Positions 9,645-38,124 of a stretch of DNA of 64,000 nt are shown one piece after another. How positions within the stretch are numbered: position 1 is the stretch's first letter; the number at the start of each line of letters is the position of its first letter. The DNA lies in the NCBI GenBank assembly GCA_964521295.1, contig CAZFRF010000001.1, forward strand, positions 334,146 through 398,145, written 5' to 3'. The position numbers and the translations under genes are program-made. The stretch comes from an uncultured Gammaproteobacteria bacterium (GTDB taxonomy: Bacteria; Patescibacteriota; Microgenomatia; Levybacterales; UBA12049). The notes beneath the pieces are model-generated. The model was not told where the DNA came from. It did no database searches and saw nothing but the letters and a program-made list of their open reading frames with translations.

Positions 9645-10193
9645 TTAAAAGCCAGAAGAGTTAAGAAGAATTTGTTTAGTTTTTAATTTTCTTTCCAATA
9701 AATTTTCGATGAATTCATGCGTACTAAGTTGCAAAGCCTGTCTTTGAGAATAAAAACCAAGTAAACTTAAAAGCTGTATTTCAAAATCTTTCACAATCTC
9801 AATTAAATTATTCTTTTCTTTACTGATTAATTTTAAAGTCTTATCTAATAAATCAAATATTTCATTATTTTGCTGATTCTCAGGACAAAGTCCATCTACT
9901 AGCTCACACACGTGATACGCAAAGCCAATTTTTTCTAAATCGTTTTTTAAGTCATAGAAGTTCTCTAAAGACTCAACCTCAGTTAAGGTTGGCATTGATT
10001 TACCCCTATATAAACTAAAAACACAATAATTTAAAAGTTCTATATGAGGAGATCTTTTACTAGTAATTCTTCTAACTCCCGTCGCTTTGATTTTTATTTT
10101 TCCTTCTGTTTTTGAATAAACTGTAATAAGTCTATCTGCTTCCCCAAAATTCTTCCGCTTAATAACAATTCCTTGTAGTTTGAATGATTTCAT
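9645..10193 (-). CDS. recO: DNA repair protein RecO (short form)
   Basis: N-terminal OB-fold signature QGIVIKRKNFGEADRLITVYSKTEGKI. Only 182 aa, so the C-terminal zinc-finger region appears to be absent. Confidence 0.55.
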   Translation of the reverse strand: MKSFKLQGIVIKRKNFGEADRLITVYSKTEGKIKIKATGVRRITSKRSPHIELLNYCVFSLYRGKSMPTLTEVESLENFYDLKNDLEKIGFAYHVCELVDGLCPENQQNNEIFDLLDKTLKLISKEKNNLIEIVKDFEIQLLSLLGFYSQRQALQLSTHEFIENLLERKLKTKQILLNSSGF

Positions 10194-12208
10194 TATCTGA
10201 GCTTTAAGTTAAGAGTCTTATCAGAAGCAAGTGGAAATATTTCTAGTTTCCTGCCAGAAGTATTGATTAAATAGTTACTTGAATTTGTTCCAGGTTGTTT
10301 TTGGATCATTAAAGGAAGAACTGAATTATTTGCTAACTTAAATGGCAAGGTATAAGTAAGTGTATATTTAGCTACGCCTTGAGGTCTAATTGTTAAAAAG
10401 CCCTCAAAGACAGTCTTACCAAGCTCATCATAGGTTTTTAATTTAACCTCTGAACCTTGACTACTAACTAACTTACTACCTTTTGGAACATATATCCTAA
10501 CCCAATCCCTTAAAATAGCATTTAGACACAAATTGCCTCTTTCAAGATTGCAATCAGATGGTGGATATGGATTCTTATAATTTACCGTAACAGTCTTTGT
10601 AACTAAGCCATCTGAGCCAACTGAATAGTCTTGGGTAACCTCTTGCGAAACAAACATATTAGATTTAGCTCCACCAAGATTAGCTTCATTAATGTGTAAA
10701 TAATCTCCATCAAATGGCATTATTCGACCTGCAGCGTTCAAACCTTCTAATCCTTCCTGGGCTTGAGCGTTATATGCATAGAAAAGAATATGTTTCTCAG
10801 AAATTTGAGTTAACATTGTTTGAAAAAGTGGACCCCAATATAACTTTGGAGAAGATGAGAAGGCTTTTTGCATAATTGCATACATTAACTCTCCGATAAT
10901 TCCTTTTCTATTATTCCTAACAACCTGACCTGGTCTATCTGCATATTCTTCTAATTCATAAATTACCTGAGGACAATCGCATCTCGGATCAGTTTTAGTA
11001 GTAAAATTAATCCCTCCAGCTTGCATATCTCCCAAAATATTCATAGCTGCAACTAAAGCTTGCGTATCAACCGCAAAGATTCCATCTACTTTGGTATACG
11101 CACTAGATTTCTTATACATCTTAGTAAACTCATCCATTGAGACTTTATAATCCGGAGAGATATTAACGTCTCTTAAGTTAAGCTTACTAACCTCAAGATA
11201 TTTTTGGAAAACTTCTGGAGCAGCGCTTTTTCCAGAGATTGTATCGTCGAGAGCATAAATATCTGAAGAATTATCAACCTTAATAACTCCTGAATTTAGT
11301 CTAAAGATAGAATAGGCTGTGATAAAACCACCAGTTGGTCTCAATTCTTTATCATTTTGGAAAATAATTAAATATCTTTTTTCATCAGGCTCTCCCAACA
11401 TTGTTGGCAAGACCTTAATTAATGGCTTTGCATTAGAAATTAATGTAACACTTTGGTCGGTCAAAGTTTTGAGATTTGTTAAGCCGCTTTGTACTTTCTT
11501 ACCAGCGCCAATTGCAGGATAATGCTTAGGATTAACTTGATCTATTTCTTCTCTAACTAAATCTAGCTTCGCAGAGATCTCATCAATTTTGGGAGTAATT
11601 TTACTCATTGTCTTAACTGCTGTTTCAATACGCTGCTGGGCAGTCCCACCAACAAAACTTCCTTGACCCTTAAGGCCTAGTAAATCTGCATAAGGCTTGA
11701 TTGAATCTACTAAAATTACTGCAGCGTCTAAACCATGAAAGCCTGCATTTATTAAATGATCTGCATCGCTATAGTATCCATGAGCAATTGGAATAAAATT
11801 TAAATAACCCATTGCATGTAAGCTTTTTTGGGTAACTAATAAGGCTGCTTTAGTTTTTGCAAGTTCTTCAGATGCTGCACCAATATTTTGCTGTTTTAAC
11901 ACTTGAGCCGTAATCTGAGCCTGGGCATAAGTAATTTTTACCGTGGAATACAAAGCTCTTGCCTGAATAACAACTAGACCTACAAATAAAATTAAAAATA
12001 CTACAAAAATACCTAGACCTACTTGAAATTTACGATTTTTTAATACTTTTTTAAATCTAGAATTAGCAAAGCGACCTGATCTTCTTGGAGAACTTTCGGT
12101 AGACTGGTTTAAACCTGAAGTCACGTTAGTAGAGCTTGTTTCCTTGGGAGTCTCAAATTGAATCTTAGACAATCCGTCCATAACAATTATCATATCGGAT
12201 ATTATCAA
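10193..12208 (-). CDS. DUF4012-like membrane-anchored protein (671 aa)
   Basis: N-terminal TM helix and a large extracytoplasmic domain. The motif FQNDKELRPTGGFITAYSI resembles the DUF4012 RPTGGFIGS core. Confidence 0.5.
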   Translation of the reverse strand: MIISDMIIVMDGLSKIQFETPKETSSTNVTSGLNQSTESSPRRSGRFANSRFKKVLKNRKFQVGLGIFVVFLILFVGLVVIQARALYSTVKITYAQAQITAQVLKQQNIGAASEELAKTKAALLVTQKSLHAMGYLNFIPIAHGYYSDADHLINAGFHGLDAAVILVDSIKPYADLLGLKGQGSFVGGTAQQRIETAVKTMSKITPKIDEISAKLDLVREEIDQVNPKHYPAIGAGKKVQSGLTNLKTLTDQSVTLISNAKPLIKVLPTMLGEPDEKRYLIIFQNDKELRPTGGFITAYSIFRLNSGVIKVDNSSDIYALDDTISGKSAAPEVFQKYLEVSKLNLRDVNISPDYKVSMDEFTKMYKKSSAYTKVDGIFAVDTQALVAAMNILGDMQAGGINFTTKTDPRCDCPQVIYELEEYADRPGQVVRNNRKGIIGELMYAIMQKAFSSSPKLYWGPLFQTMLTQISEKHILFYAYNAQAQEGLEGLNAAGRIMPFDGDYLHINEANLGGAKSNMFVSQEVTQDYSVGSDGLVTKTVTVNYKNPYPPSDCNLERGNLCLNAILRDWVRIYVPKGSKLVSSQGSEVKLKTYDELGKTVFEGFLTIRPQGVAKYTLTYTLPFKLANNSVLPLMIQKQPGTNSSNYLINTSGRKLEIFPLASDKTLNLKLR

Positions 12209-12222
12209 TCTATGTCAACCTA

Positions 12223-12864
12223 TTACTTAAGTTTAATATGAAGTCTTGCTTGATTAATATTTGTAGGATATTTTAGTTGAGTTTTAACTTGTACTTGATA
12301 ATCCTTAGCCCCCTGATCATAAACTAAAGCTTTAGAAGACGTATATCCAGATTGTCCACTAATTGACACCTCACTGTTCCAAACTGGATGCTTATCTGTT
12401 TTATTATATAGTCTTACCCAAACCATTTGATTTGCGGTTGGAACGCTTACTGAAACTTCAAAAAATATATCTTTAATATTTCCATAATTTGCAAAATCTA
12501 CATTTGCTTCTAAACCAGCGACATCTGCCCATTCATCAGCAATGCTTGATCCAGACCCAAAAGCAACAAAATACTCCTTAGCACTCAAATCCTTAACAAC
12601 AGGAGTTATTACTTGAGTCGGAGTAATTGTCTGAGTTAAACTAGGCTCTTGAGTTGGGGTTGGCAAAGAAACACCATTTTTACTACTAATCTGCTCAGGC
12701 CTAAAAATAAATTGATAAATAACTACAAAATTTAAAAAGGTAACTAATATTAAGAAAAGAATTATCCAGAAAAAACGCTTTGCTCTTTTTTCATCTTTCA
12801 AGATCTTTTCTTCATCGACTTGAATCTCTTCTCTTAAGTCTTGGAGTTGTTCATTGGTAACCAT
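12223..12864 (-). CDS. membrane-anchored protein with a Pro/Thr/Gln-rich linker (213 aa)
   Basis: TM helix, then PTPTQEPSLTQTITPTQVITP, then a beta-rich domain. Confidence 0.5.
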   Translation of the reverse strand: MVTNEQLQDLREEIQVDEEKILKDEKRAKRFFWIILFLILVTFLNFVVIYQFIFRPEQISSKNGVSLPTPTQEPSLTQTITPTQVITPVVKDLSAKEYFVAFGSGSSIADEWADVAGLEANVDFANYGNIKDIFFEVSVSVPTANQMVWVRLYNKTDKHPVWNSEVSISGQSGYTSSKALVYDQGAKDYQVQVKTQLKYPTNINQARLHIKLK

Positions 12865-12902: not shown

Positions 12903-13568
12903 TTACAAAGCGCCTTTACCGGAGATCATGGTCCAAGGGGTTTTTAAAATAATCCACAAGTCGTAAATTATTGATCTTTTTCTAACATAGGTTGCATCCA
13001 TTTCTATTCTTTTATCAAAATTAATCTCAGATCTGCCAGAAACTTGCCAATAACCAGTTAAGCCAGGTTTTATTGAAAGCACAATCCTAACTGCTTTTTG
13101 AGTTTTGGGATATTTTTTTTGCTGCTCTCTTAATTCATCTGGATAATATGCTCTTGGACCAACTAAACTCATGTCCCCTTTTAAGATATTAAAAAGTTGG
13201 GGAACCTCATCTATGGAGTGCTTTCTAATAAAGTGACCAACCCTGGTTATTCTTGGGTCATCTTTTAATTTATAACTACTCTTTTTATATTCATTATAAA
13301 GCTTGGCATATTCGGGATTATTTCTTAAAAGAGTATGAGCATTAATGATCATACTTCTAAACTTATACATTTTAAATAAATTTCCACCCTTACCCACTCT
13401 TTGTGGCGTATCTGCAAGAACTGGACCTCTACTATCAAGCTTGATTGCAATTGCAGTAATAAGAATTATAGGAGAAAAAATGATTAAAATTGTAAGAGCA
13501 AAAACGATATCCATTAGCCTTTTTACAATTTCATAAATTCCGCTTTTTTTAATCTCTGTAACTGGCAT
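12903..13568 (-). CDS. polyprenyl-phosphate hexose-1-phosphate transferase (WbaP/WcaJ C-terminal-domain family sugar transferase)
   Basis: 221 aa with one TM helix. Carries PVLADTPQRVGKGGNLFKMYKFRSM and DEVPQLFNILKGDMSLVGPRA, the bacterial sugar transferase signature. Confidence 0.85.
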   Translation of the reverse strand: MPVTEIKKSGIYEIVKRLMDIVFALTILIIFSPIILITAIAIKLDSRGPVLADTPQRVGKGGNLFKMYKFRSMIINAHTLLRNNPEYAKLYNEYKKSSYKLKDDPRITRVGHFIRKHSIDEVPQLFNILKGDMSLVGPRAYYPDELREQQKKYPKTQKAVRIVLSIKPGLTGYWQVSGRSEINFDKRIEMDATYVRKRSIIYDLWIILKTPWTMISGKGAL

Positions 13569-16916: not shown

Positions 16917-17267
16917 ATGAAGAACTATAAAGATATTGACGAATATATAAATTCATTTCCCAAAGATATACAAAGCAAATTAACCGCTATTAGAATAGCA
17001 ATTCACAAAAGCGCACCAAATGCTACTGAAAAAATAAGTTATGGAATGCCAACTTTTTATCAAAATGGCAACCTTGTCCATTTTGCTGCATTTAAAAATC
17101 ATCTTAGTCTTTTCCCAGCACCTTCTGGCGTTAATATGTTTAGAGACAAACTTAAAAAATATCAAACTAGCAAAGGGACTATTCAATTTAAATATTCAGA
17201 TGAAATTCCTTATGATTTGATAGAGCAAATTGTAAAATTCAGAGTTACAGAAAACACTAAAAAATGA
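16917..17267 (+). CDS. DUF1801 (YdhG-like) domain protein
   Basis: DIDEYINSFPKDIQSKLTAIRIAIHKSAPNATEKISYGMPTF is typical of DUF1801. Confidence 0.6.
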   Translation: MKNYKDIDEYINSFPKDIQSKLTAIRIAIHKSAPNATEKISYGMPTFYQNGNLVHFAAFKNHLSLFPAPSGVNMFRDKLKKYQTSKGTIQFKYSDEIPYDLIEQIVKFRVTENTKK

Positions 17268-17278
17268 TAAACTAAATC

Positions 17279-17755
17279 ATGATTCAAAAGATTACTCCAT
17301 GCTTATGGTTTGACAACAACTGCGAAGAAGCTATAAGTTTTTATACCTCCATCTTTCCTAATTCTAAAATTATAAGTATGCAAAAATACCCTCAAAATGT
17401 TGATGATCCCCACATGAAAGGCATGGAAGACAAAATTATAACATCTATTTTTGAACTTGATGGGCAAAAATTTATGGCACTTGATGGAGGACCAATTTTT
17501 AAATTTAATGAAGCAATTTCTTTCGAAGTAGAATGTGAGAATCAAGAAGAAGTTGATTATTATTGGGAAAAACTATCAGCTGTACCTGAATCAGAGCAAT
17601 GTGGATGGCTAAAAGATAAGTACGGAGTCTCTTGGCAAATTGTTCCTAAACAACTTGGCGAACTTATTAGTAAGGATACAACAGGAAAAGTAATGCAAGC
17701 AATGTTAGAAATGAAAAAAATTGTAATTAAAGATCTAGAAAATGCTGCTAGCTAA
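17279..17755 (+). CDS. VOC-family protein (PhnB / 3-demethylubiquinone-9 3-methyltransferase-like domain)
   Basis: N-terminus KITPCLWFDNNCEEAISFYTSIFPNSKI is the characteristic start of this domain family. Confidence 0.65.
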   Translation: MIQKITPCLWFDNNCEEAISFYTSIFPNSKIISMQKYPQNVDDPHMKGMEDKIITSIFELDGQKFMALDGGPIFKFNEAISFEVECENQEEVDYYWEKLSAVPESEQCGWLKDKYGVSWQIVPKQLGELISKDTTGKVMQAMLEMKKIVIKDLENAAS

Positions 17756-17876: not shown

Positions 17877-19064
17877 CTAAACTAATGCAGAAATATAAAT
17901 CTTATTCAACTCTTCAGAAATCTTTGACCAGTCATAATTTTCTTCTACTAACTTTCTACTGTTAATTGTTAATTTTCTATACAAACTAGAATCATTTGCA
18001 AGCTCAACCAAATTATCTGCTAACTCGCTAGCCGATTCACCTGCTAATACATGAGTTTCGTTCTTTGCACCCAAACCTTCTATACCTAAATTAGTAGTAA
18101 CCACTCCTACACCAGTCGACATTGCTTCCAAAATCTTATAACTAGTTCCCCCAGCTGCTCTTAATGGAGCAAGTAGAATAAATGATTTTCTAAAAATATC
18201 ATAAGTTGATTCTTTATTGTTCGTATCAAAAATTATTTCAGGAGAGGAGTAATTTTTAAAATATTCTGGAATATTCCTACCTACTATCCAAAGCTTCAAA
18301 TCAAAATCTTTATTTAACTGTTTATATTTATTTTTTACCTGTGGCCAAATATCTTTAAGGATAAATTCTAAGGCATCTTTATTCTGTAACCACTTAAAGT
18401 CTCCAATAAATAAAACTTTTCTTTCTTGTGCTTGATCTAGAGGTCTGAATTTAAAATTATCTGTATCAACTCCATTAGAGACCACACTAATATTATTTAT
18501 TCCCATTAATTTTTTTTCTATTTCTGAGACAGCAACCAATTTATTAACTTTTTTCCAAATTTGCTCTTCAAATTTTTTAAGTTTTTTAACATCTAAAAGC
18601 AAAAATGGCCTGAGTAAAGGATTTGCAAGACTTGCATATCTTTTATATACCAAATATTCCACGTTATGTTCTACTAATACGATAGGGATATTCACCTTTG
18701 GCAAATTTTGATAAACATAAAATGTTTCTACGTGAATCAAATCGAAGTTTTCCTTAACCAATTCATCTTTTATTAAACTCTTCATTTCTTCACTTGTATG
18801 TCCCACAATTAAAAATGGCTGCTTTGAAAAACCAGTTTTTAATATATTTCCAATACTCCACTGCTTTCTTCTTTTAACTGTAATTACTTTTTTACAAATC
18901 TTTTCTAATTCCTTAATATCTTCATGGGTTTGATTTTCACGCTTCTCACAAATTAAAGTAATTTCATTTTGTCTGGATAAATATTTAATTAAATTATATA
19001 AACGAACGTGCCCCCCAGAATGCAGGGGAAAAGGTAGAAATGAAGAAATCATTAAGATTTTCAT
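17877..19064 (-). CDS. glycosyltransferase (GT4/GT1-like, GT-B fold)
   Basis: 395 aa. C-terminal GGTSYKILEAMSTGVGVVTT motif. Confidence 0.6.
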   Translation of the reverse strand: MKILMISSFLPFPLHSGGHVRLYNLIKYLSRQNEITLICEKRENQTHEDIKELEKICKKVITVKRRKQWSIGNILKTGFSKQPFLIVGHTSEEMKSLIKDELVKENFDLIHVETFYVYQNLPKVNIPIVLVEHNVEYLVYKRYASLANPLLRPFLLLDVKKLKKFEEQIWKKVNKLVAVSEIEKKLMGINNISVVSNGVDTDNFKFRPLDQAQERKVLFIGDFKWLQNKDALEFILKDIWPQVKNKYKQLNKDFDLKLWIVGRNIPEYFKNYSSPEIIFDTNNKESTYDIFRKSFILLAPLRAAGGTSYKILEAMSTGVGVVTTNLGIEGLGAKNETHVLAGESASELADNLVELANDSSLYRKLTINSRKLVEENYDWSKISEELNKIYISALV

Positions 19065-20497
19065 GGTTTTTGCAATAAATCAAATATAACATATTCTTTG
19101 TTTGCTTCTATAATCTTATATGTTTTACCAATCTCCAAATCCTTTGCCGTAGGGTTAATTAAAATTAAATAAGTTGCTCCCATTTGCATTAGCTCAGGAA
19201 CAGATTTTTCAAAACTAGCCCAGCCTTTTCTTTTAGTTTGATACAAAAATGATGTATCACCATTATAATTTGCAATTACTTTTGCATTCTTTGGCGTTAA
19301 TCTATCAACAGCCTGACCAGCATGAACAATAGAAATCTCATTAATATTAAAATAATCTTTAACGTACTGACCACTTACTAAAAATGAAGCTGAAGTTAAA
19401 ATTATTAATACCACTAACAATAAATATTTATTTACTATCTTAAAACTCAACCAATTACTCGCACCTAAGCCGAGAAAGATTGCAATACTTGGAATAATTA
19501 AAATTTGATAATAATCATGCGTAACATTACCTGTTGCAAGAGTAACCATATATACTCCACTTGAAAATAGAAAGGATATGGCAAAGAATAAATTTTTATC
19601 AATATTTTTAACAAAACTTAAAATAAAAATGGGCAAACCAAAAAATCCAAGTATTAACTTAAAAAATCTTTCATATACAATCCAATAAAAAAATGACGGT
19701 CTAAATCTAATATGGTTTCCATTAAATAACCAATTACTTTGAGGAATTCCTTCAGGATATTGCAACATCCAGTACCTCCACATAAACAAGGGAATAACAG
19801 ACAAGATCACAAAACTCCAAACTGCCTTATTAGAGAGTATTTTTTTATCAAATTTCTCATATGCTAAATATAAAATTGGCAATATAAAAAATATTGCATA
19901 CGGCTTAAGTAGTAATGCGCTAATTGAAAATATTATTGAAATAATTAGATTTTTTTCTAATAATTTAGTTTTCTTTTGCAAAATCCAATTCTGGAAAAAA
20001 TAAATACTTCCAAGACTTGCAGTTACCATTAAGGGGTCTGGCAATATTGTGCGCGAATAATAAATATTAAAAGGGATAAATAGAAAAAAAAGTGCAGACC
20101 AAAACCCTGCAATAAAATTAAACCTTTTTGAAATAATTTTGTAGATAAAAAATGCTGAGAAAAGAGAACCAATAATACTAACCAGCCTTCCCCATTCCTC
20201 TAATGTAAATACCCCTAAATATTTAAAACCTACTGCTTGTAAGACATTGTAGATTGGAAATTCAACGAATCTATAGCCATTTGGATTATCATACTTATTT
20301 GTAGGAACATTCGAGATATCATCGAAACGTGGATGAAGTAAATCAAAACCATTATCAACGAAATTTCGTGAAACCGAAGAGGTATCTGCCTGTCTCCAGG
20401 AGTGCCAATCAGCAATTGAACTATCAAATCTATAGAGCCTGACAATAAATCCTAAAGTAAAGAGTGCTACTAAAAGAAATGTTTTAAGCTTATTCAT
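19061..20497 (-). CDS. polytopic GT-C-fold glycosyltransferase (PMT/ArnT-like)
   Basis: 478 aa with about 11 TM helices. First-loop motif DWHSWRQADTSSVSRNF sits where the acidic DE motif lies in ArnT/PMT. Confidence 0.5.
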   Translation of the reverse strand: MNKLKTFLLVALFTLGFIVRLYRFDSSIADWHSWRQADTSSVSRNFVDNGFDLLHPRFDDISNVPTNKYDNPNGYRFVEFPIYNVLQAVGFKYLGVFTLEEWGRLVSIIGSLFSAFFIYKIISKRFNFIAGFWSALFFLFIPFNIYYSRTILPDPLMVTASLGSIYFFQNWILQKKTKLLEKNLIISIIFSISALLLKPYAIFFILPILYLAYEKFDKKILSNKAVWSFVILSVIPLFMWRYWMLQYPEGIPQSNWLFNGNHIRFRPSFFYWIVYERFFKLILGFFGLPIFILSFVKNIDKNLFFAISFLFSSGVYMVTLATGNVTHDYYQILIIPSIAIFLGLGASNWLSFKIVNKYLLLVVLIILTSASFLVSGQYVKDYFNINEISIVHAGQAVDRLTPKNAKVIANYNGDTSFLYQTKRKGWASFEKSVPELMQMGATYLILINPTAKDLEIGKTYKIIEANKEYVIFDLLQKP

Positions 20498-20531: not shown

Positions 20532-23500
20532 TTAATTACCTAAGGTCTTATCAATTTGCCTTACGCTTCCATCATCATTAAACTGTAAAACAATTTTATT
20601 GAAATCAAGACCAGCATTATGTACTGCATCGGCAGCAGTTGGATAAGTATAAATTCTTGCTTGAGGATTTTTGAATGCAAACCACGTCGCATCTTCAAGA
20701 CCCACTGGGAAAACCCAAGCATCACCAGATTTAATAGGAACATTTACAAAATGGAATTCAACTTTATCCTGTGACCAAAAATTGGTATATTGAGCGTCAA
20801 GGGAAATAAAGAAATTCTCAACTTTTTGACCAGCACCTGCCCAATCAAAGTATGCTTGCTGAATTTGAATAATTTGGAAAAGAGAATAAATTAATATAAA
20901 AATTGTTACTGTTAATAAAGCAATTTCCTTACCTGTTTTTCGCAATGTATCATAAAACTTCTTAATATAATAAACAAAGATAATAATTACTCCTAATGAA
21001 GCTAAGTAACTATATCTTGACGCAATATTACCTAAGCCTAGATATGTAATAAGTGAGGCAATAAAGAAAAGACTTCCAAAAATCACAATTCTTCTGTCTT
21101 CTCCTCTGAAAAGTTTAATTTTTCTAATATAGATTAAAACGACTGCAGACAATAAAATTAAACCTAAGATGATAGCAACTATTAGATTTGCTCTAAAAAG
21201 ATTTCTTAACACATTGTAAATCGCCACTGTATCTTGACCAACCAAAATAAGCATTAGATATCCAAAAACATTTCCAATAATATTAAATGGTAACTTAACC
21301 AAATCGTAACTGTAATCTCCATTAAACCAATGACTATGTGCAATAAATCTAATTGCTAAATAACCTAAGATTGGAAAGAATAAAGCTAAATACTCTTTCT
21401 TTGTAAAAAAATTCTTTAATGCCTGGGTAAAACCATCCTTAGCTTGATAGCTCAAGATTAAGAATGGCACTATTACTCCCATTTCATGGAACATCAATGA
21501 ACCTATGATAAATAAAAGTGACAAAAGATAATAAATTATTTTTTTGCTTTCAAAATATTTAATAAAAGACAATAATGTTAAAAGAGCAAAGAACGATGAG
21601 ACAACTTGACCAATTGATGCAATCCAAAAGACTGCCTCTGAATAACCTGCAATTATTAAAAACAAAAATGCTGCAACTGCAGACATTAATTTATTTTTAT
21701 AGAGCTTAAGCGACAAAAAGTAAAACAAAACAGCAACTGCAAAATGCATCACAAGTGAAAATGCATGATATACAAATGGATTTAACCAAAATACTGATTC
21801 AAAAATATAAAAATATAACTTTGTACCAGGTCGGTAAAAGAAACCATTAGAGTTAACAAAAAAATTAATTATTCTCCCAATTAATGAACAATCGCCTCCG
21901 CAATCTGATGCCCATCTTAGCCATGTAAAATCATCTCCTATAAAAAAATTAGAAAGCATTGGAGAATACAAAATCAAAGCAAAACCGAGTAGATAAACTG
22001 CTATTGCAACATGTGATGTAGAGATTTTAATGAATTCTTCCTTTAAGCTAATTTCCTTACCTTGATATTGCATAACTAAAGCAAGAGTAATACCAATTAA
22101 CGTCCATAGAACAAATGCGATTTTGGAAGCTTCAAACACATCAATCAAAGTGGCATTTAAAAATAACCCAACAGTACCTGCAATAAAACCAACTACAAAA
22201 CTCTTAACAAGTGGGGAATCGATATTTTTATAAGCATTTTTTACATAGATACCAAAAGAAATAAAAATCCCAAAAAATGCTAAAAAGCCAAACATACCAA
22301 TCTCACCTAGCATTCTTAAGTAATTATTATCAACTGCCAAGCTGACTGATCCATATCCACTTCCTAGGAAAATATTGCGCATAAATGCTGCAAAGGTCCT
22401 TGGCCATTCACCCTGAAATCTGGTTGTAAAAGATAAATCATAAGCAGCAGCTTTTTTAACTATAAAGTCTCCGTGAAGCACCAATACTTGAGCAGAAAAT
22501 GTTGCCTCAATATTTTCAGGTAATTCATAGAAAAAATTACCTAAACGATTTGTAACAGGCGATAAGGTTAAATTAATATAGCCTGTACCCTGAGGTAAAC
22601 TTTCTCCATTGGATACATTTGTTGCTAAAACTAATGGAACACTTTGAGGAATAAATTCATACGCCAAAAGTGCTGATTCAGATGATTTTAAAGTATCTGG
22701 ATCACCTGTTATTGCGCCAACCAACTCCTCTTCATTAGCAACTCTTTTTTGCAAAACTATTTTATCTTTAAAATAATCTTTAGGAACAAATTTAACATGC
22801 CCAACTGAATCTCCAGTTTTAGCATCAACTAAGACATCTACCGTTGCTACGGTTGATTTAAATCTATCTAAAAGCGATGGCTGATAACTTAAAAATGCAA
22901 ACGCAAAAATCACCGTTAGAGGAAGGATAATAAGGACCAACTTTTTTTTATGAAAAAACAATACAATAAAAAGAGAAACAAAAAGAACTAAGAATGAAAC
23001 TCTAGAAACAGTCCAAAATAAAACAACTAACCCAAGCACAGATGTAACTACAGTAATAATTTTAATTAACCAATTTTTAAAACCAAAAAATAAACTAGCA
23101 ACTAGTGGGATTATTAAAACTAAATATGCAGCTAAATCGTAATGACCTGCAAAAGTTGATGAAACTCTAGATAAACCCGAAAGCTGAATTGGAATTCCTT
23201 TTGCAAATTCCTCATTCATCGTTAAGTAAGCTGGAAAACCCAAATATTTTTGACCAAATCCATAAAATATTACACCAAGTAAGGTAAGAATAATTACACC
23301 AATAACTATTGGTAATCTTGGTTTTTCCTTGAAACCTTGGTAGGCGATGAAAAATAAGCTCATATATTCTACATGCCTAACTAAAGATAAGAAGGCTACA
23401 TTTGGAAAAACATTTGCAATTGTAGGAAAAACTAACAGTATCCCATGCATCGTCGACAAACCACCAATTATCCAGAAGATTAAAATCGGCAAGGTAAGAG

Positions 23501-23708
23501 GAGTTTTTAATGTAATTTTTTCCTTAAGCAATAGAATTACCCAGGACAAAAGTACAAACACAACCAAAAAATCTTCTGTTCTTACATAAACCCAGGTATT
23601 TTTAACATCAACTATTGGAATTTTGGGGAAAAGAGGAATGACAATTAAAAGGATGAGTGTTTCAATAAACAAAATATTATCGTAAATAAAATTCAAGATT
23701 TTTTTCAT
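20532..23708 (-). CDS. large membrane protein (1058 aa): N-terminal O-antigen ligase/polymerase-like (Wzy_C) domain fused to a second GT-C-like polytopic domain and a C-terminal soluble domain
   Basis: GLSRVSSTFAGHYDLAAYL and GSGYGSVSLAVDNNYLRMLGEIGMFG match the Wzy_C/O-antigen-ligase pattern, with a large periplasmic loop between them. The second half contains IGDDFTWLRWASD in the first loop of a new TM bundle. Confidence 0.5.
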   Translation of the reverse strand: MKKILNFIYDNILFIETLILLIVIPLFPKIPIVDVKNTWVYVRTEDFLVVFVLLSWVILLLKEKITLKTPLTLPILIFWIIGGLSTMHGILLVFPTIANVFPNVAFLSLVRHVEYMSLFFIAYQGFKEKPRLPIVIGVIILTLLGVIFYGFGQKYLGFPAYLTMNEEFAKGIPIQLSGLSRVSSTFAGHYDLAAYLVLIIPLVASLFFGFKNWLIKIITVVTSVLGLVVLFWTVSRVSFLVLFVSLFIVLFFHKKKLVLIILPLTVIFAFAFLSYQPSLLDRFKSTVATVDVLVDAKTGDSVGHVKFVPKDYFKDKIVLQKRVANEEELVGAITGDPDTLKSSESALLAYEFIPQSVPLVLATNVSNGESLPQGTGYINLTLSPVTNRLGNFFYELPENIEATFSAQVLVLHGDFIVKKAAAYDLSFTTRFQGEWPRTFAAFMRNIFLGSGYGSVSLAVDNNYLRMLGEIGMFGFLAFFGIFISFGIYVKNAYKNIDSPLVKSFVVGFIAGTVGLFLNATLIDVFEASKIAFVLWTLIGITLALVMQYQGKEISLKEEFIKISTSHVAIAVYLLGFALILYSPMLSNFFIGDDFTWLRWASDCGGDCSLIGRIINFFVNSNGFFYRPGTKLYFYIFESVFWLNPFVYHAFSLVMHFAVAVLFYFLSLKLYKNKLMSAVAAFLFLIIAGYSEAVFWIASIGQVVSSFFALLTLLSFIKYFESKKIIYYLLSLLFIIGSLMFHEMGVIVPFLILSYQAKDGFTQALKNFFTKKEYLALFFPILGYLAIRFIAHSHWFNGDYSYDLVKLPFNIIGNVFGYLMLILVGQDTVAIYNVLRNLFRANLIVAIILGLILLSAVVLIYIRKIKLFRGEDRRIVIFGSLFFIASLITYLGLGNIASRYSYLASLGVIIIFVYYIKKFYDTLRKTGKEIALLTVTIFILIYSLFQIIQIQQAYFDWAGAGQKVENFFISLDAQYTNFWSQDKVEFHFVNVPIKSGDAWVFPVGLEDATWFAFKNPQARIYTYPTAADAVHNAGLDFNKIVLQFNDDGSVRQIDKTLGN

Positions 23709-23711
23709 AAG

Positions 23712-24275
23712 TTATCTAAACCAAGCTGCTCTACCGAGTTTATAGTTAGGATTTTTATTCTGTCTTTCGCCTATTTCTTTTGCAGGAACTCCGCCAACTA
23801 TTTTAAAATCTTCAACATCTTTAGTGACCACAGCACCAGCTCCAACTACTGCTCCTTTACCAATTTTTACACCCGGTAAAATTATTACTCTTGGACCAAT
23901 AAAAACATAGTCACCAATTTCAACAGTTTTAGTTATAACCTGATCTGGGTTTGCAAAATCTTCAGCTGACATATCATGCTGAGAGTTGTAAATCATAACT
24001 TCTGATGCAACATCAACATGATCCCCAATAACAAGTAGGCCCCTACCATCCAAAACTACGTTTTCACCAATAATAGTATCATTTCCAATTTTAATATTTG
24101 GTGGGTAATAAAAAACTGCACCCATATGTATAGTAGATCCACTCCCGATCCTTATTCCCCAAAATCTATAAATAAATCTTCTTATAAAATGAGAAGGAAT
24201 ATAACCAGCTAGTTTTAATTTATAATTAATAAGCTCCCAGAAAATTGTTTTTACTCTTCTAATTATTTTATTCAT
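23712..24275 (-). CDS. hexapeptide-repeat sugar O-acetyltransferase (left-handed beta-helix)
   Basis: Hexapeptide repeats IGNDTIIGENVVLDG...IGDHVDVASEV. Start reassigned to MNKII at 24275, giving an ATGA overlap with the upstream GT4. Confidence 0.7.
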   Translation of the reverse strand: MNKIIRRVKTIFWELINYKLKLAGYIPSHFIRRFIYRFWGIRIGSGSTIHMGAVFYYPPNIKIGNDTIIGENVVLDGRGLLVIGDHVDVASEVMIYNSQHDMSAEDFANPDQVITKTVEIGDYVFIGPRVIILPGVKIGKGAVVGAGAVVTKDVEDFKIVGGVPAKEIGERQNKNPNYKLGRAAWFR

Positions 24276-25366
24276 TTTATAGACTCTAAAACGCTGAGTG
24301 TTTCTTTGGCAGTTTTCTCCCAAGAAAACTTCTTTATTTGATTATAGCCTTTTTTTATCATTTCTTCTCTAAGACTAGAGGAATCAATAACTTTTTGCAG
24401 CGTATTAGCAATATCTAAAGGATTATTTGGATCAAAGTATAAAGCAGCGTCTCCTCCCGCCTCGGGCAAAGATGAGACATTACTTGCTACAACTGGGCAA
24501 CCATACTTCATTGCCTCAAGTACTGGCAAACCAAAACCCTCATACAAAGAAGGCAGGGCAAAGCAAAGAGCATTTTTATATAAACTTGGTAAATCCTCAT
24601 CTGCAACAAAATCTAAAAACTTAACCTTCTCCCCTACCCCATACTTAGCTGGTGCTGATAAAATATCTGCGTATTGCCACCCTTTCTTACCCACAATTAT
24701 AAGATTTAGTTTATTATTTTTTAATTTTGAGAATGCCTCAATTAGCTTAACTATATTCTTACGGGGCTGAAGAGTACCTACAAACAAAATGTAATCTGAT
24801 TCTATTCCAAATTTTTTTCTTAAATCTTCCATGCTGTAATTTTTAATAGATTCATTATTTTTAATCCCTAAGTAAGTGGGATGTATTTTTCCTGAATCTA
24901 CTGCGTATTCTTTGATTATATCATTACGAGAAGAATTACTAATAGTAAAAATTGCTGCTGCATTTTTAATTGAGTACTTAGACCAATTTTGTAATTGATA
25001 TAGATCTTTTTTATTAAAAAGCTCTGGAAAATAAATATATGAAAGATCCATTATAGAAATCGCTGTCGGAACTGGTGATAATCTAGGCGCGTAATGCGTG
25101 GGACTAAAAAAAATGTCTGGTTTTTTTCCAAAATATAAGGATAAAGGTAGTCCAAACTGTGTCCACATTTTTCTAGGACCCACCAGCTTATAGGTAAAAT
25201 TCGCAGAAGGAGTCGGCATGTCAGACAAAGGTCTATCTTTTAAATAAATGATAAATTCATGATCAGTTTTTAGCTTAGAAAATTCTAAGATTAACTGATA
25301 GGCATATTCACTTATGCCAACTCTTTTTTGAACATTTGCTTCATTACCATCAATTCCAATAATCAT
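24272..25366 (-). CDS. glycosyltransferase family 4
   Basis: EGFGLPVLEAMKYGCPVVAS. Starts MIIGIDGNE. Confidence 0.7.
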   Translation of the reverse strand: MIIGIDGNEANVQKRVGISEYAYQLILEFSKLKTDHEFIIYLKDRPLSDMPTPSANFTYKLVGPRKMWTQFGLPLSLYFGKKPDIFFSPTHYAPRLSPVPTAISIMDLSYIYFPELFNKKDLYQLQNWSKYSIKNAAAIFTISNSSRNDIIKEYAVDSGKIHPTYLGIKNNESIKNYSMEDLRKKFGIESDYILFVGTLQPRKNIVKLIEAFSKLKNNKLNLIIVGKKGWQYADILSAPAKYGVGEKVKFLDFVADEDLPSLYKNALCFALPSLYEGFGLPVLEAMKYGCPVVASNVSSLPEAGGDAALYFDPNNPLDIANTLQKVIDSSSLREEMIKKGYNQIKKFSWEKTAKETLSVLESIK

Positions 25367-25368
25367 AA

Positions 25369-25893
25369 TTAAACTCCAGCATTAATAACCACTAACTTAC
25401 TTGCATCTATTCCTAAGATTTCAATTGCATCTTTTTTTGTTGATTCAGAAATACATAAAATTCGCTCTGTTTCTTTCTTAACCCAAGCTATTTTTTTCTT
25501 TTGCACCTCGACAATTGAATTTGCTGTTTCATTAGGATATTTATAAACAATTAAATCATAAAGGATAGTAACTTTCGAAGCATTTTTGACTGGTGGCTCC
25601 GTCCAATCAGAAGATATAAAAACATCAACACTACCAATCAAGCTTTCAATTGGCAAAATATGCAAATTGTTCCAGATGATATTTAAGAATGCTTGCGGAA
25701 ACTTAAACTTTTTAATAGTTACGTTTTCATTTTTTATATTTAATTCTGGCATAACTCCTCTTAATGAGGAAAAAAACAAGACATATTGATTCTTAGTATC
25801 AACCTCTAAAAGATTTTCTAATAAATTCTTTAAATAATTAGCTACACCAGTTTTTTCATAAGCAAGTTGTGAGATATCTATTCCAATCTTCAT
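25369..25893 (-). CDS. GT4 N-terminal domain only (174 aa); possible remnant of a duplicated glycosyltransferase
   Basis: MKIGIDISQLAYEKTGVANYLKNLLENL is a GT4 N-domain start. The ORF ends before any C-terminal EX7E region. The next gene is a complete GT4. Confidence 0.45.
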   Translation of the reverse strand: MKIGIDISQLAYEKTGVANYLKNLLENLLEVDTKNQYVLFFSSLRGVMPELNIKNENVTIKKFKFPQAFLNIIWNNLHILPIESLIGSVDVFISSDWTEPPVKNASKVTILYDLIVYKYPNETANSIVEVQKKKIAWVKKETERILCISESTKKDAIEILGIDASKLVVINAGV

Positions 25894-26108
25894 ATTATCC
25901 TTTCTTTAATAATCATAATTAAAATTGAGAGAATAAGAAAGAAAAAACCGTAATAGACAAGATGCTGAGCGGTAAAGAAGAGTTGTAAAAAAAATAAAGG
26001 AATAGAAAGAGCTAAAGATCCTAGACCAAAATAAGTACTAAGTTTTGAATCTTTTTTGTAAATTAAAAAAACAAATACTAATAAAAACAAAATGTCTTGA
26101 ATTTTCAC
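25890..26108 (-). CDS. small 2-TM membrane protein (72 aa), possibly GtrA-like
   Basis: Two hydrophobic helices. Overlaps the upstream GtrB-like gene. Confidence 0.35.
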   Translation of the reverse strand: MKIQDILFLLVFVFLIYKKDSKLSTYFGLGSLALSIPLFFLQLFFTAQHLVYYGFFFLILSILIMIIKERII

Positions 26109-27040
26109 TCTGATTTATATTTTATTATGTCATCTAAGGTTTTAGAAGTCTTTCCTTTTTCAGATAGATTAATAATTAAATCTGCGGTAAAACCTGCAAA
26201 AAGAATCTGAAGACCAGCCAAAACTAAAAGCATTCCGAATGTTAAAAGTGGCCTGGTTCCAATTGATTGTCCTAAGAAATGGACTATTGTTAAGTACAAT
26301 AGAATAAAAAATCCTATTACCCCAACTATTCCACCAACTAATCCAAAAAAATGAAGGGGTCTTTTTGCATACTTTGTTAAGAAAAGTATTGTAAACATGT
26401 CGGGAATATCTTTAAAGACTTTAGAAAACCCATATTTTGACTTACCAAACTTTCTTGGCTCATGAATTACTGGTATTTCTGTTACCTCAAATCCTTTTTC
26501 AGAAACTAAAAGAGGAATAAATCTATGCATCCCACCATATAAAACAACACTCTTAGCTGCATCTTTTGTGTAAAGTTTTAATCCACAATTATAATCATGG
26601 AGATGAACGCCCCAAAAAGCTGACATTAAGAAATTAAAAAGCTTTGAAGGAAGCTTCATGTAAAATGCATCTTTTCTGTTTTTTCTCCAGCCTGAAACCA
26701 AATCAAAGCCTTCTTTGGATCTTTTAAGTAAATTTTCAATCTCTTCTGGCATATCCTGCAAATCCGCATCAAGGGTAACAATGTGCTCTCCACTTGCAAC
26801 ATTAAATCCGTAAGTTAAAGCTTCAGATTTTCCCTGATTTCTTCTAAATGAAAATACTTTAACAGACTTATCTTTTGTTAATAATTTTTTAAGAATATCT
26901 AAAGAAGAATCCGTTGACCCATCATCAATAAAGATGATTTCGTGATTTGAGTCAATTTTTATGAGTGCATTTTTAAGCCTGGGATAAAATTTATCTAAAC
27001 TTTCCTCTTCGTTAAAAACAGGAATAACTGCCGATATCAT
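26105..27040 (-). CDS. polyprenyl-phosphate glycosyltransferase (GtrB/ArnC/DPM1-like GT2 with C-terminal TM helices)
   Basis: VIPVFNEEESL, IFIDDGSTDSS, DADLQDMPEEI, and two C-terminal TM helices. Confidence 0.75.
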   Translation of the reverse strand: MISAVIPVFNEEESLDKFYPRLKNALIKIDSNHEIIFIDDGSTDSSLDILKKLLTKDKSVKVFSFRRNQGKSEALTYGFNVASGEHIVTLDADLQDMPEEIENLLKRSKEGFDLVSGWRKNRKDAFYMKLPSKLFNFLMSAFWGVHLHDYNCGLKLYTKDAAKSVVLYGGMHRFIPLLVSEKGFEVTEIPVIHEPRKFGKSKYGFSKVFKDIPDMFTILFLTKYAKRPLHFFGLVGGIVGVIGFFILLYLTIVHFLGQSIGTRPLLTFGMLLVLAGLQILFAGFTADLIINLSEKGKTSKTLDDIIKYKSE

Positions 27041-27052
27041 AAATATATTCTA

Positions 27053-27883
27053 TCATTTTTTAAACCTGTAACCAAATATAATAAAAGCAATAGTAATAAT
27101 AAGAGTAATTATGCTTATTATTAACCCTATTGAAACATACTGCTGAGGCAAATAATATACTTTTAATTTATATGATCCTTTACTATCCAACCTAAAACTA
27201 TTAAAAATACCATATTTTTCGGATTTGACTTGTTTACCATCTAAGATTGCTACCCAACCTGAATTATAATTTTCTGTAAATATTAATAAATCTTTTGCCT
27301 CTACCCCACTTAGATCTAAGTTATATTCAACCGGACTTATGTACTTATATTTAATATTTAGCTTTGATGAATTACTCCAAAAATGATCCCTAAAACCCTC
27401 TATTTTAAAAACTGCAATTCTATCAAAACCCTTAACTTCTTTCATCCAAGGAATTTTTCTAATATTTACAATTGTATTTAAATACAATTTATTATTATAT
27501 TTTCTATCTTTAATAAATATTTCCCCATGTGAATCATATGGAATAATAATATGCTCTATTCCAAGGTCAAAAAATAAATTCTTTGTGTTTTCATCCTTTA
27601 GCTTTGCTAATAACTTAGGTAAATCCGATGTTTGAAAAAAATCTTGCGCTGAAATGGCAGGATGCTGATTACTATAAAAACCAAATCTTTGTAATTTTGG
27701 AAACCAGATTGTTCTTGAAAAATAATCTTTCTTATCTAAGTATTTTTCAAGACTTATGTATTCGGTTGGCATTTCAATCTTTTTAAAAGTACCATTTATT
27801 TCTCCTAAAATTGCAGGCTTAATTAAAAACAGAAGAAAAGCTATTGTTAAAAGTAAAAATATGAATGGAATAATCTTTTTCAT
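27053..27883 (-). CDS. bitopic protein with a periplasmic domain and C-terminal TM helix; resembles the C-terminal module of YfhO-like GT-C enzymes
   Basis: C-terminal GIFNSFRLDSKGSYKLKVYYLP plus a TM helix parallels the C-terminus of the intact 55709..57349 protein (GIMLFNLSKGEYLVRVVF plus TM). Confidence 0.45.
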   Translation of the reverse strand: MKKIIPFIFLLLTIAFLLFLIKPAILGEINGTFKKIEMPTEYISLEKYLDKKDYFSRTIWFPKLQRFGFYSNQHPAISAQDFFQTSDLPKLLAKLKDENTKNLFFDLGIEHIIIPYDSHGEIFIKDRKYNNKLYLNTIVNIRKIPWMKEVKGFDRIAVFKIEGFRDHFWSNSSKLNIKYKYISPVEYNLDLSGVEAKDLLIFTENYNSGWVAILDGKQVKSEKYGIFNSFRLDSKGSYKLKVYYLPQQYVSIGLIISIITLIITIAFIIFGYRFKK

Positions 27884-27884
27884 A

Positions 27885-29057
27885 CTAATTAAACTTATTT
27901 TTTAAATAAATAAAAATCTTAAAAATTGAATATGGCACAAGAATTGAATAGCTTACAGCAATTAATGAATACCACTTTGTAGGATCTCTAAACATTACAA
28001 ATCCTGGAATATTATCAAATAGCCAAATATATAAATTTCCAAATGGTTCATTTGAGCCTTTTGCTAAAAATATACCTAAAAGACCAAGTGATATAAAAAA
28101 TACTAAATATTTTTTTACTTTTATCTCTTCTTTAGTTATAAATAAAATTGATGTAAATGCAATTATAGGTAAAACTAAATACTCAGGCTTCATAAAGCCT
28201 ACTTTACCAAAAATATTTTCTGGCCAATTTGGATGTAAAAGCCCAAATGAGTTTTCCATAGTAGCAAAACTAAAATATCTTACAGCTTCCTTTGAAGTAT
28301 AAATGTCGCCTAACTGAGATATTGCTTCTTTAGCTGAGAAAAATGCTGGCAACAACCAAAAAGAGTGAATACCAATAAATATTGATAATGGAATCAATAC
28401 TACTAAAAATAGAGCAGATTTAATATTTTTCAAAAGATCATTAATTTGGATAAGTGAACAAAGAATAAGTGCAAAAGAAAGCATGTAGCCAATCCTTATA
28501 TCAAGTAAGGATACAACGGCAAAAACCAACCCAAAAACAACAGAGTTTTTAACAGATAATGTGTTTAATAATTTAATATAAAAATAGTAAACAAATGGAG
28601 CAAGTGAATAAGATAAGGCAATACCCATTTGCCCACCCGAAGCCATCATTAAAGAATAAGTATTTGCAGTATATAATAAACTTGCCAAAGCAAGTAATAA
28701 ATTATTCTTAAACAATGACTTAAACAAAATTAAGCTAGATATAAATGAGAAGACTAGGAATGGGATATACCAAAAAAGCTTAATATACGCTCCCCAACCT
28801 AAAAGCAAAGACAGTTTAATTGAAGTTGACGTATAACCTTCAAGCCATAAATAAGGCAGAACACTTGCACCAAGACCAGTTCTCGCTGAATCCCATATAC
28901 CAAGAGGCATAATATCCATTATTCTTTGCAAAGAATAATACTCAAAATCACCTGCTGAAATAGAAAGAGAAAATAACCAAGTCTTAAATATTATTCCAAT
29001 TATTATTAATATAAATAATATAAGAAGAGAACGAATGTTTAATAAAATCTTTTTCAC
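27885..29057 (-). CDS. polytopic membrane protein (390 aa), likely the N-terminal GT-C module of a split YfhO-like glycosyltransferase
   Basis: About 10 TM helices. Its stop lies 1 nt before the start of the downstream periplasmic-module ORF. Confidence 0.45.
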   Translation of the reverse strand: MKKILLNIRSLLILFILIIIGIIFKTWLFSLSISAGDFEYYSLQRIMDIMPLGIWDSARTGLGASVLPYLWLEGYTSTSIKLSLLLGWGAYIKLFWYIPFLVFSFISSLILFKSLFKNNLLLALASLLYTANTYSLMMASGGQMGIALSYSLAPFVYYFYIKLLNTLSVKNSVVFGLVFAVVSLLDIRIGYMLSFALILCSLIQINDLLKNIKSALFLVVLIPLSIFIGIHSFWLLPAFFSAKEAISQLGDIYTSKEAVRYFSFATMENSFGLLHPNWPENIFGKVGFMKPEYLVLPIIAFTSILFITKEEIKVKKYLVFFISLGLLGIFLAKGSNEPFGNLYIWLFDNIPGFVMFRDPTKWYSLIAVSYSILVPYSIFKIFIYLKNKFN

Positions 29058-38123: not shown

Positions 38124-38124
38124 T

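Follow-up and report, generated by a model that had tools for sequence, protein, structure and literature searches.

A single gene in the window, which is the whole stretch of 64,000 nucleotides that was analysed, encodes a membrane protein of 1058 residues (20532-23708, minus strand) in which a module with the predicted fold of the WaaL, Wzy and SEDS enzymes is fused to a second predicted membrane glycosyltransferase and a small soluble domain. Based on sequence comparison and structural models, the protein is proposed, with a probability of roughly 0.55, to be a two-site extracytoplasmic enzyme that would both transfer or polymerise an Und-PP-linked glycan and attach a sugar taken from a polyprenyl-phosphate donor. 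The fusion architecture appears to be undescribed, with literature searches for a GT-C_B and GT-C_A fusion or family finding nothing, and both of its parts are known kinds of enzyme.

The fusion gene and its orthologs

The open reading frame runs uninterrupted from an ATG at 23708 to a TAA at 20532-20534, and the stop codon of the acetyltransferase gene upstream lies 3 nt from its start. An earlier note on this DNA, which gave no strand, had taken the frame as one gene, and this holds: all of the top 120 database homologs are full length (1049-1086 aa, coverage 98-100%), and an independent Logan assembly yields a protein of equal length that clusters with the window protein at 90% identity. 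GTDB gives at least 586 matches at species level, of which the best 80 all have the fused form, 75 of them with an uninterrupted frame of at least 1000 aa. The full-length homologs and uninterrupted frames rule out two separate genes or a frameshift artefact; the fusion is one real gene and is shared by hundreds of genomes of the Microgenomates (Patescibacteria), its orthologs being named 'O-antigen ligase family protein' by NCBI. All counts of residue conservation given here refer to the 75 orthologs with a frame of at least 1000 aa, which are 38-69% identical. Among them 167 positions are at least 97% identical, which is far above chance, and these are spread over both halves of the protein. 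The C-terminal half evolves faster than the N-terminal half.

The predicted topology has the N terminus inside and 12 plus 13 TM helices, thus 25 in total, and the positive-inside count fits this arrangement. The two halves would be joined by a short cytoplasmic linker (residues 548-565; 22014-22067, minus), the least conserved stretch of the protein. Hydropathy, the AlphaFold models and the positive-inside count agree on three features which the earlier note had described, namely a large outside loop (periplasmic in the note), now placed at residues 276-461 between TM9 and TM10, a second polytopic bundle from about residue 566 and a hydrophilic C-terminal tail of about 105 aa. The order that it had proposed, a Wzy_C/WaaL-like module followed by a GT-C bundle and a soluble tail, is likewise what the family and fold evidence point to.

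The N-terminal module

The N-terminal module (residues 1-550, 12 TM; 22059-23708, minus) is assigned from its AlphaFold model (pLDDT 76.5, pTM 0.71) to the WaaL/Wzy/SEDS (GT-C_B) fold, with a Wzy_C domain that is split in two. The top Foldseek match in the PDB is WaaL (7tpg_B, E 4.5e-5, prob 1.0, TMt 0.61), which is the only strong match and is followed by FtsW and RodA, with TM-scores that are modest throughout (0.4-0.6). A weak NCBIfam match to IctB (TIGR00947) covers residues 49-251.

The window protein has no match to any Pfam family at E<=1, because a beta-rich insert of about 130 aa splits the Wzy_C domain. Wzy_C (PF04932, gathering score 31.7 bits) is matched below threshold in 26 of 34 orthologs, at best with 28.4 bits, as two co-linear pieces flanking the insert, and an ortholog whose halves are separate genes (locus L086) has a recorded Wzy_C match. 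The earlier note had held that the lack of a Wzy_C hit would speak against its reading; there is indeed none in the window protein, yet this is overruled by the matches of the orthologs and the WaaL fold. Of the motifs that it had read as Wzy_C-like, SRVSSTFAGHYDLAAY is present at residues 180-195, although its spacing had been given wrongly by one residue, and GSGYGS...DNNYLRMLGEIG is found as described at residues 449-471. The first piece of the domain (residues ~221-290, profile positions 2-74; 22839-23048, minus) contains TVSR with R236, and the second (residues ~421-480, profile positions 75-149; 22269-22448, minus) holds FTTRFQGEW with R430 as well as GSGYGSVSLAVDNNYLRMLGEIGMFG. The insert itself (residues ~290-420; 22449-22841, minus) lies within the outside loop, forms strands in the AlphaFold model and has a conserved STGExLPQGTGYINL loop with an invariant E369; the orthologs that have diverged furthest have a version some 40 aa shorter (alignment A6). 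Profile searches of PDB sequences with the insert, and with the full-length family, found no relative.

Three residues of this module are putatively catalytic, R236, R430 and D460 (codon 22329-22331, minus), and each is invariant in 75 of the 75 orthologs, among which the N-terminal half has no invariant His in any of its outside loops. In WaaL two arginines (7TPG R191 and R265, EcWaaL R215 and R288) bind the diphosphate of Und-PP and a catalytic His (7TPG H313, EcWaaL H337) activates the acceptor (PMC10920833). R236 aligns with EcWaaL R215, which lies in TQTR, and R430 with EcWaaL R288, by motif and in an hhalign alignment that was not significant, as was the case for the N-terminal half with and without its insert against E. 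coli WaaL plus the 7TPG fragment (EcWaaL/CmWaaL). Both look like conserved Und-PP-binding arginines. By motif, D460 corresponds to the WaaL His, an equivalence at the level of motifs only that is drawn from the motif match, from Pfam co-linearity and from helix position; the Asp is retained in the split orthologs (AVDSSF, ATDGNY) and the distant homolog P0226 (ATDNSY), with the adjacent N461 varying.

The module resembles WaaL (CAZy GT121; 7TPG; E. coli) in its 12-TM GT-C_B fold, its large TM9-TM10 outside loop, its expected Und-PP-linked glycan donor and its Wzy_C motifs (T-x-x-R, the loop-helix Arg and G-x-G...[H/D]-N-x-Y-L...E-x-G-x-x-G). The fusion differs from WaaL in having D460 instead of His, the insert in Wzy_C, a sub-threshold Pfam score and an attached second glycosyltransferase of 13 TM, in an organism that presumably has no lipid A-core acceptor. 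In clan GT-C1 the SEDS and inverting polymerases are marked by an Asp or Glu where WaaL has its His, and the inverting Wzy and SEDS families (GT119, GT125-129) share this carboxylate and one or two conserved Arg (PMC10920833), a pattern that D460, R236 and R430 match at motif level. Because D460 is an Asp and not the His of the ligases, the reaction of the N-terminal module would more probably be Wzy-type polymerisation than LPS-type ligation, although it may instead be ligation to an acceptor other than lipid A. FtsW and RodA are the closest structural matches after WaaL, but SEDS proteins have 10 TM helices as against the 12 of the module, and a SEDS peptidoglycan polymerase was rejected on TM count and motifs.

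The C-terminal module and tail

The C-terminal membrane module (residues 566-951, 13 TM; 20856-22013, minus) has, judging from its AlphaFold model (pLDDT 85.2, pTM 0.88) and from profile comparison, a GT-C_A fold and is a remote relative of the PMT_2 enzymes. The IGDDFTWLRWASDCGGDC segment with which the earlier note had this bundle open is present at residues 590-607. Foldseek matched more than 20 GT-C_A structures at prob >=0.9, with STT3/PglB, ALG12, DPY19, AftA, Emb and Pmt4 all at prob 1.0; the best matches are the oligosaccharyltransferases STT3 and PglB, with the E-values of ALG12, DPY19 and AftA within about tenfold of these.

The PMT_2 search that had been suggested for this half gave an indirect link. 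Neither the window protein nor the 34 orthologs match Pfam PMT_2 or PMT directly, but the remote homolog P0245 (26% identity) passes PMT_2 with an E-value of 1.8e-10, and hhalign of the C-terminal half against the PMT_2 paralogs of the window gave 96.8% (E 2e-10) with the conserved Asp aligned. BLASTP of this half against the neighbouring GT-C genes gave nothing, and profile comparison was thus needed to see their kinship; a profile search of PDB sequences with the C-domain family found no relative. Together with a 574-aa paralog (32103-33827) the module forms a clade without Pfam matches. The putative catalytic acid of GT-C enzymes would be in D592-D593 (codons 21930-21935, minus) at the start of external loop 1, each of which is conserved in 75 of the 75 orthologs. 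D593 is the one that is universally retained, and the Asp of this loop is also invariant in alignment A4, as D42, and is present in P0226 as 'SDF'. With PMT_2, ArnT and PMT (GT39, GT83) the module shares the GT-C_A fold, homology at profile level and an acidic residue where external loop 1 begins, and the fusion differs from them by the lack of a Pfam PMT_2 match in the fused orthologs, by motifs of its own (GFFYRP, SHWxGGDYSY, LGLGNIxSRYxY) and by a distinct small C-terminal domain.

This last domain (residues 952-1058, ~105 aa; 20535-20855, minus) is a predicted extracytoplasmic alpha/beta domain with a conserved AWVFPVGLxDA motif, for which a profile search of PDB sequences found no relative. 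In the models and the predicted topology it faces outward, as do the conserved loop sets of both modules. Five apparent standalone representatives of the C-domain family (P0121, P0128, P0129, P0137 and P0156) were rejected as truncated gene calls, their starts falling within the final TM helix of the N-terminal half.

The operon

The fusion lies in an operon of about 15 genes with a near-invariant order, which in 80 genomes has in common a phosphoglycosyl transferase (PGT), four to five GT4 enzymes, a GT2, a hexapeptide acetyltransferase, a GtrB-like GT2 and a PMT_2 neighbour. The PMT_2 neighbour, a GT-C protein of 478 aa (19061-20497, minus; Pfam PMT_2, E 5e-9), is the next gene after the fusion in all 76 loci where the contig continues. 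The PGT (Bac_transf, E 1e-62; 12903-13568, minus), whose position is conserved, is by its sequence the enzyme that initiates the Und-PP-linked glycan of the operon. The operon-conserved GtrB-like GT2 (26105-27040, minus; Pfam Glycos_transf_2) has C-terminal TM helices and is likely to be a polyprenyl-phosphate-sugar synthase supplying the GT-C modules; a synthase of this kind in the same operon is also a feature of the systems in which GtrB and a GT-C enzyme glycosylate side chains. In locus L086 and in L087/L088 the two halves of the fusion are separate adjacent genes in the same slot of the operon. A DUF4012 protein is encoded at 10193-12208.

The operon adjoins the dcw cell-wall cluster and has the look of a housekeeping pathway for a polymer. 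Across the 80 genomes its conserved genes are for glycan synthesis only, and they include neither a pilin nor any other evident acceptor protein. The conserved core also has no Wzx flippase, the nearest Polysacc_synt flippase being 25 kb off (48991-50259), and no recognised chain-length regulator (Wzz), a partner of the inverting Wzy polymerases. The reading of the N-terminal module as a polymerase is weakened by the absence of both from the core operon.

Proposed function and alternatives

In the proposed two-site enzyme the first module would take an Und-PP-linked oligosaccharide made by the PGT, the GT4 and GT2 enzymes and the acetyltransferase of the operon, hold its diphosphate with R236 and R430 and pass the glycan en bloc to an acceptor whose hydroxyl D460 activates. 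On the outer side of the membrane the second module would attach one sugar to this glycan from a polyprenyl-phosphate monosaccharide that the GtrB-like GT2 supplies, with the C-terminal domain helping to hold the acceptor. Oligosaccharyltransferases use PP-linked donors and PMT_2-type enzymes use lipid-P-monosaccharides, so the fact that the top structural matches of the C-terminal half are of the former kind counts against the polyprenyl-phosphate donor. The fusion would couple the two steps, in a manner comparable to WadA of Brucella and Mesorhizobium, a bimodular O-antigen ligase (GT121 + GT25) whose GT25 domain completes the core with its last sugar ahead of ligation (PMC10920833). In WadA, too, the transferase of a lipid-linked glycan is fused to another glycosyltransferase for the same product, a precedent for coupled action, but the partner in WadA is a soluble GT-A enzyme of cytoplasmic type that uses a nucleotide sugar, whereas the partner in the fusion is a membrane GT-C_A module with an outward site. 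The earlier suggestion that the protein may polymerise or ligate a glycan and then modify it is still the most plausible, and its extension to a protein acceptor is unsupported. It is tentatively suggested that the enzyme may be processive, polymerising and decorating with a Wzy-type polymerase and a GT-C side-chain transferase kept together in a single 25-TM chain, or in a close pair of genes, and glycosylating each repeat as it is added, and that its product may be a conserved, essential envelope polymer with the role of a teichoic acid or lipoglycan in Microgenomates.

A rather unlikely alternative, but the one that survives best, is that the N-terminal half is a ligase which hands over the completed Und-PP-linked glycan a single time, to an acceptor other than LPS (for example peptidoglycan, a glycolipid anchor in the membrane or a further lipid-linked glycan), with the C-terminal half building or decorating that acceptor. 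The closest solved structure is that of WaaL, the NCBI name of the orthologs is that of a ligase, the core operon has neither Wzx nor Wzz and the dcw cluster is adjacent, all of which would suit a ligase. Patescibacteria are not known to have LPS, and if they lack it the classical acceptor does not exist; moreover, no genes for acceptor synthesis were identified and an Asp stands in the place of the ligase-type His. WadA can be cited for this reading too, as a ligase fused to a glycosyltransferase that prepares the acceptor (PMC10920833).

An O-oligosaccharyltransferase of the PglL/PilO type was a candidate role in the earlier note; that the N-terminal half is such an enzyme, with Ser or Thr of pilins or S-layer proteins as its targets, is now considered improbable. 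PglL and PilO do belong to the Wzy_C family, and pili are prominent among the CPR-enriched protein families (PMC6744442). However, the His that is essential in such enzymes is replaced by Asp, the Pfam search found no accessory PglL_A or Wzy_C_2 domain in the window protein or its orthologs, and the operon of 80 genomes carries no pilin or other target gene and resembles a housekeeping polymer pathway.

It is equally improbable that the N-terminal half polymerises and that the C-terminal half, in the manner of PglB or AglB, then moves the Und-PP-linked polymer en bloc onto a final acceptor. STT3 and PglB head the structural matches of this half, which has the 13 TM followed by an outside C-terminal domain that are typical of STT3, PglB and AglB (GT66). 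An oligosaccharyltransferase was nevertheless rejected: the WWDxG motif is absent, with no WW or W.D.G string anywhere in the window protein, the C-terminal domain is far smaller at only ~105 aa, the profile kinship is to PMT_2-type enzymes, users of lipid-P-monosaccharides, and other GT-C_A enzymes match almost as well (ALG12, DPY19 and AftA). That one module is a non-catalytic scaffold or a substrate-binding domain and the other the sole enzyme, as might be read from the failure of either half to reach a Pfam threshold and the faster evolution of the C-terminal half, is hardly credible given that in 75 orthologs of 38-69% identity neither module varies at its putative catalytic residues and that the 167 conserved positions fall in both halves.

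Implications

The cell envelope of the CPR/Patescibacteria is almost uncharacterised. Present in at least 586 species-level genomes, the fusion and its operon of about 15 genes rank with the best-conserved envelope loci of the Microgenomates, and they point to a surface glycopolymer that is shared across the group, whilst the annotation as 'O-antigen ligase family protein' or 'hypothetical' overlooks half of the protein. The His-to-Asp state at a WaaL-like site bears on how ligases and polymerases diverged within the superfamily, and the fusion would be a natural system for the coupling of en bloc Und-PP transfer with the addition of single sugars from Und-P. If the protein does polymerise and decorate its glycan, its product would be a new component of the CPR cell wall, encoded beside the dcw cluster.

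The fusion gene and its product

The gene at 20532-23708 on the minus strand has 1058 uninterrupted codons from an ATG start, and the motifs cited in the earlier note, which gave no strand, are all found in it. The ATG lies 3 nt past the stop codon of the acetyltransferase gene upstream of it, with 34 nt between the end of the fusion gene and the next gene. The product joins two membrane-bound glycosyltransferase modules that fall into different GT-C classes, a WaaL/Wzy-like N-half (residues 1-550) and a C-half with the GT-C_A fold (residues 566-951), and these domain identities are held with high confidence. The topology was derived from hydropathy, two AlphaFold models (one per half) and a positive-inside count, with Lys and Arg concentrated in the short cytoplasmic loops and nearly missing from the short outside loops. 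The first bundle has 12 TM helices, TM9 and TM10 being separated by an outside loop of 186 residues (276-461). A short linker in the cytoplasm (548-565) leads to a second bundle of 13 further helices, and a C-terminal domain of ~105 residues lies outside. This last domain carries a conserved AWVFPVGLxDA, and no PDB relatives of it were detected by sequence.

That the fusion is a single gene, as first proposed, is confirmed by its 120 best database homologs, all full length (1049-1086 aa, identity 54-100%, coverage 98-100%) and from Levy-, Roizman- and other Microgenomates bacteria, where they are named, if at all, 'O-antigen ligase family protein' or 'hypothetical'. A GTDB scan with one genome per species found a relative in at least 586 genomes, and the best 80 of these matches are fused without exception (identity 39-69%). 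The gene is old. Across 75 full-length orthologs, identity reaches at least 97% at 167 positions spread over both halves, and identity of the N-half stays at 40-58% in fused proteins whose C-half identity is just 25-28%.

The two modules are always encoded together. The genuine standalone C-domain proteins, P0135 and P0174 (the latter carried on four contigs), are encoded directly after a separate gene for an N-half ortholog with 37-38% identity, and these pairs, one with a 20-nt overlap and one with a 4-nt gap, occupy the operon slot of the fusion. As the modules are fused in some genomes and adjacent split genes in others, which is classic evidence of joint action, they are considered to act together.

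The N-half

Pfam gives no match to the window protein even at E<=1, and its sole NCBIfam match is a weak one to the O-antigen-ligase-like IctB family. Wzy_C is matched below threshold by 26 of 34 orthologs (best 28.4 bits against a cutoff of 31.7), always in two co-linear pieces, residues ~221-290 (profile positions 2-74) and ~421-480 (profile positions 75-149). A beta-rich insert of ~130 aa, which shows six strands in the model, thus splits the domain and accounts for the low scores; a PDB sequence search with the insert detected no relatives. The only strong PDB match of the N-half model (pLDDT 76.5, pTM 0.71) is WaaL 7TPG (E 4.5e-5, probability 1.0, TM 0.61 on target), with FtsW and RodA ranking after it.

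Motifs were compared with E. coli WaaL (Wzy_C at residues 205-354), although hhalign of the N-half with two WaaL sequences did not reach significance. The motifs that match are TVSR (R236) with TQTR (R215) of WaaL, FTTRFQGEW (R430) with GARLAMYE (R288), and VDNNYLRMLGEIGMFG with LHNEIIEAGSLKGLMG, so that at motif level Asp460 stands where WaaL has its catalytic His. R236, R430 and D460 are each present in 75/75 orthologs, and no outside loop of the N-half has an invariant His among them. The D460 site reads AVDSSF and ATDGNY in split orthologs and ATDNSY in a distant fused one, thus the conserved residue is the Asp and not the next Asn. The two Arg of WaaL serve to bind the Und-PP diphosphate and its His to activate the acceptor, whilst within clan GT-C1 an Asp or Glu is found at the His position in SEDS proteins and inverting Wzy polymerases (PMC10920833). 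The N-half thus resembles WaaL/Wzy, but fails the Pfam threshold and does not have the catalytic His of the O-antigen ligases.

The C-half

None of the 34 orthologs has a Pfam match in the C-half, and PDB searches with sequence profiles of the fusion family and the C-domain family gave nothing. The model is confident (pLDDT 85.2, pTM 0.88) and matches GT-C_A enzymes throughout at probability 1.0 (STT3/PglB, ALG12, DPY19, AftA, EmbA/B, Pmt4), although the E-values differ by no more than about tenfold between these families, too little for the ranking to settle the subfamily. An exhaustive search gave 12,403 relatives, fused and standalone, 768 of them at E<=1e-10, and one remote relative (P0245) scores above the Pfam PMT_2 threshold. 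When the profile of the C-domain family was aligned with that of the window's seven PMT_2 paralogs, hhalign gave 96.8% probability (E 2e-10) over the stretch from external loop 1 to TM6, in which the invariant D592 and D593 align with the conserved Asp of the paralogs. The nearest paralog in the window is a Pfam-less, standalone polytopic protein of 574 aa (32103-33827, minus strand; hhalign 98.7%, E 2.5e-16, 393 columns), which has QQDEW in place of GDDFTW. An oligosaccharyltransferase identity was rejected since the defining WWDxG motif is absent from the fusion. The C-half has the GT-C_A fold and loop-1 acid, but fails both the PMT_2 threshold and the oligosaccharyltransferase motif.

The operon and its surroundings

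The operon is remarkably conserved, with the order (YfhO-like), GtrB-like GT2, GT4 fragment, GT4, hexapeptide acetyltransferase, (GT2), fusion, PMT_2 GT-C, GT4, (GT2), GT4, GT4, sugar-1-P nucleotidyltransferase, Bac_transf phosphoglycosyl transferase (PGT), DUF4012 and RecO. The PMT_2 gene follows the fusion in 76/76 loci where the contig continues. Many of the GTDB MAG records with this Microgenomates-type operon (L006-L083) are titled 'uncultured Gammaproteobacteria bacterium', evidently a placeholder or mislabelled name.

In the window the YfhO-like GT-C is two ORFs (390 and 276 aa, 1 nt apart; 27053-29057, minus strand) and in orthologous locus L002 one of 733 aa, which may reflect a frameshift or a genuine split. 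The 174-aa ORF that resembles only the N-terminal half of a GT4 (25369-25893, minus strand), ahead of a full GT4 (24272-25366), is kept as a separate gene of ~177 aa in orthologous loci. Listed from a TTG, the acetyltransferase ORF (23712-24323, minus strand) shares 52 nt with the GT4 gene upstream, and translation more likely starts at an internal ATG (MNKIIRR...). The only plus-strand genes within the operon (16917-17267 and 17279-17755) lie between GT4 genes, have no counterparts in the orthologous loci examined and look like a local insertion. The DUF4012 protein (671 aa, N-terminal TM; 10193-12208, minus strand) ends the conserved operon in both loci extending that far (L002, L004), and in the window its gene is preceded by that of a 213-aa single-TM protein without Pfam family (12223-12864, minus strand). 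DUF4012 has been noted in CPS/EPS clusters, and genomes of CPR and Gram-positive bacteria have been noted as enriched in it.

In the window the dcw cluster (MraZ, MraW, class B PBP, Mur ligase; 1467-6239, minus strand) adjoins the operon, which lies upstream of it and belongs to ~55 kb of successive glycan genes, at least 12 of them for GT-C enzymes. This is an exceptional density, at least 12 in 64 kb (19061-63413, minus strand), and includes an AftD-like protein of 1148 aa (34749-38195, minus strand) and four consecutive PMT_2 genes (57346-63413, minus strand), with rhamnose-pathway and methyltransferase genes beside them. A second fusion, of 760 aa (53414-55696, minus strand), has an N-terminal GT2 and a PMT_2-type GT-C, possibly joining donor synthesis and donor use.

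Proposed function

The fusion forms part of an Und-PP-glycan pathway initiated by a PGT, and the genes of this pathway include one for a probable polyprenyl-phosphate-sugar synthase. The N-module would bind a flipped Und-PP-oligosaccharide through R236 and R430 and pass the glycan en bloc to an acceptor that D460 activates. The C-module would add one sugar to the same glycan from the polyprenyl-P-monosaccharide of the GtrB-like enzyme, its small outside domain helping to hold the acceptor, and the fusion may couple the two steps by analogy with the bimodular ligase WadA, whose steps are coupled (PMC10920833). We give this combined mechanism a probability of about 0.55. Polymerisation is favoured over classical ligation because of the Asp state and because the conserved operon has no other Wzy candidate; a true ligase acting on a non-LPS acceptor, which would fit the structural match to WaaL, is a weaker contender. 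The O-oligosaccharyltransferase suggested by the earlier note, of the PglL/PilO type that belongs to the Wzy_C family, is improbable, and equally so is a polymerase joined to an OST-like transferase, where the STT3/PglB fold match meets the missing WWDxG. That one module is dead is most improbable of all, both having invariant, outward-facing putative catalytic residues.

The nearest precedent is WadA, which joins GT121 to a soluble GT25, whereas the fusion joins GT-C_B to GT-C_A; literature searches for the family, or for any such GT-C_B and GT-C_A fusion, found no describing paper. The parts belong to known enzyme classes, and what is new is how they are combined, the interruption of Wzy_C by a beta insert, the Asp state, and how widely Microgenomates conserve the protein.
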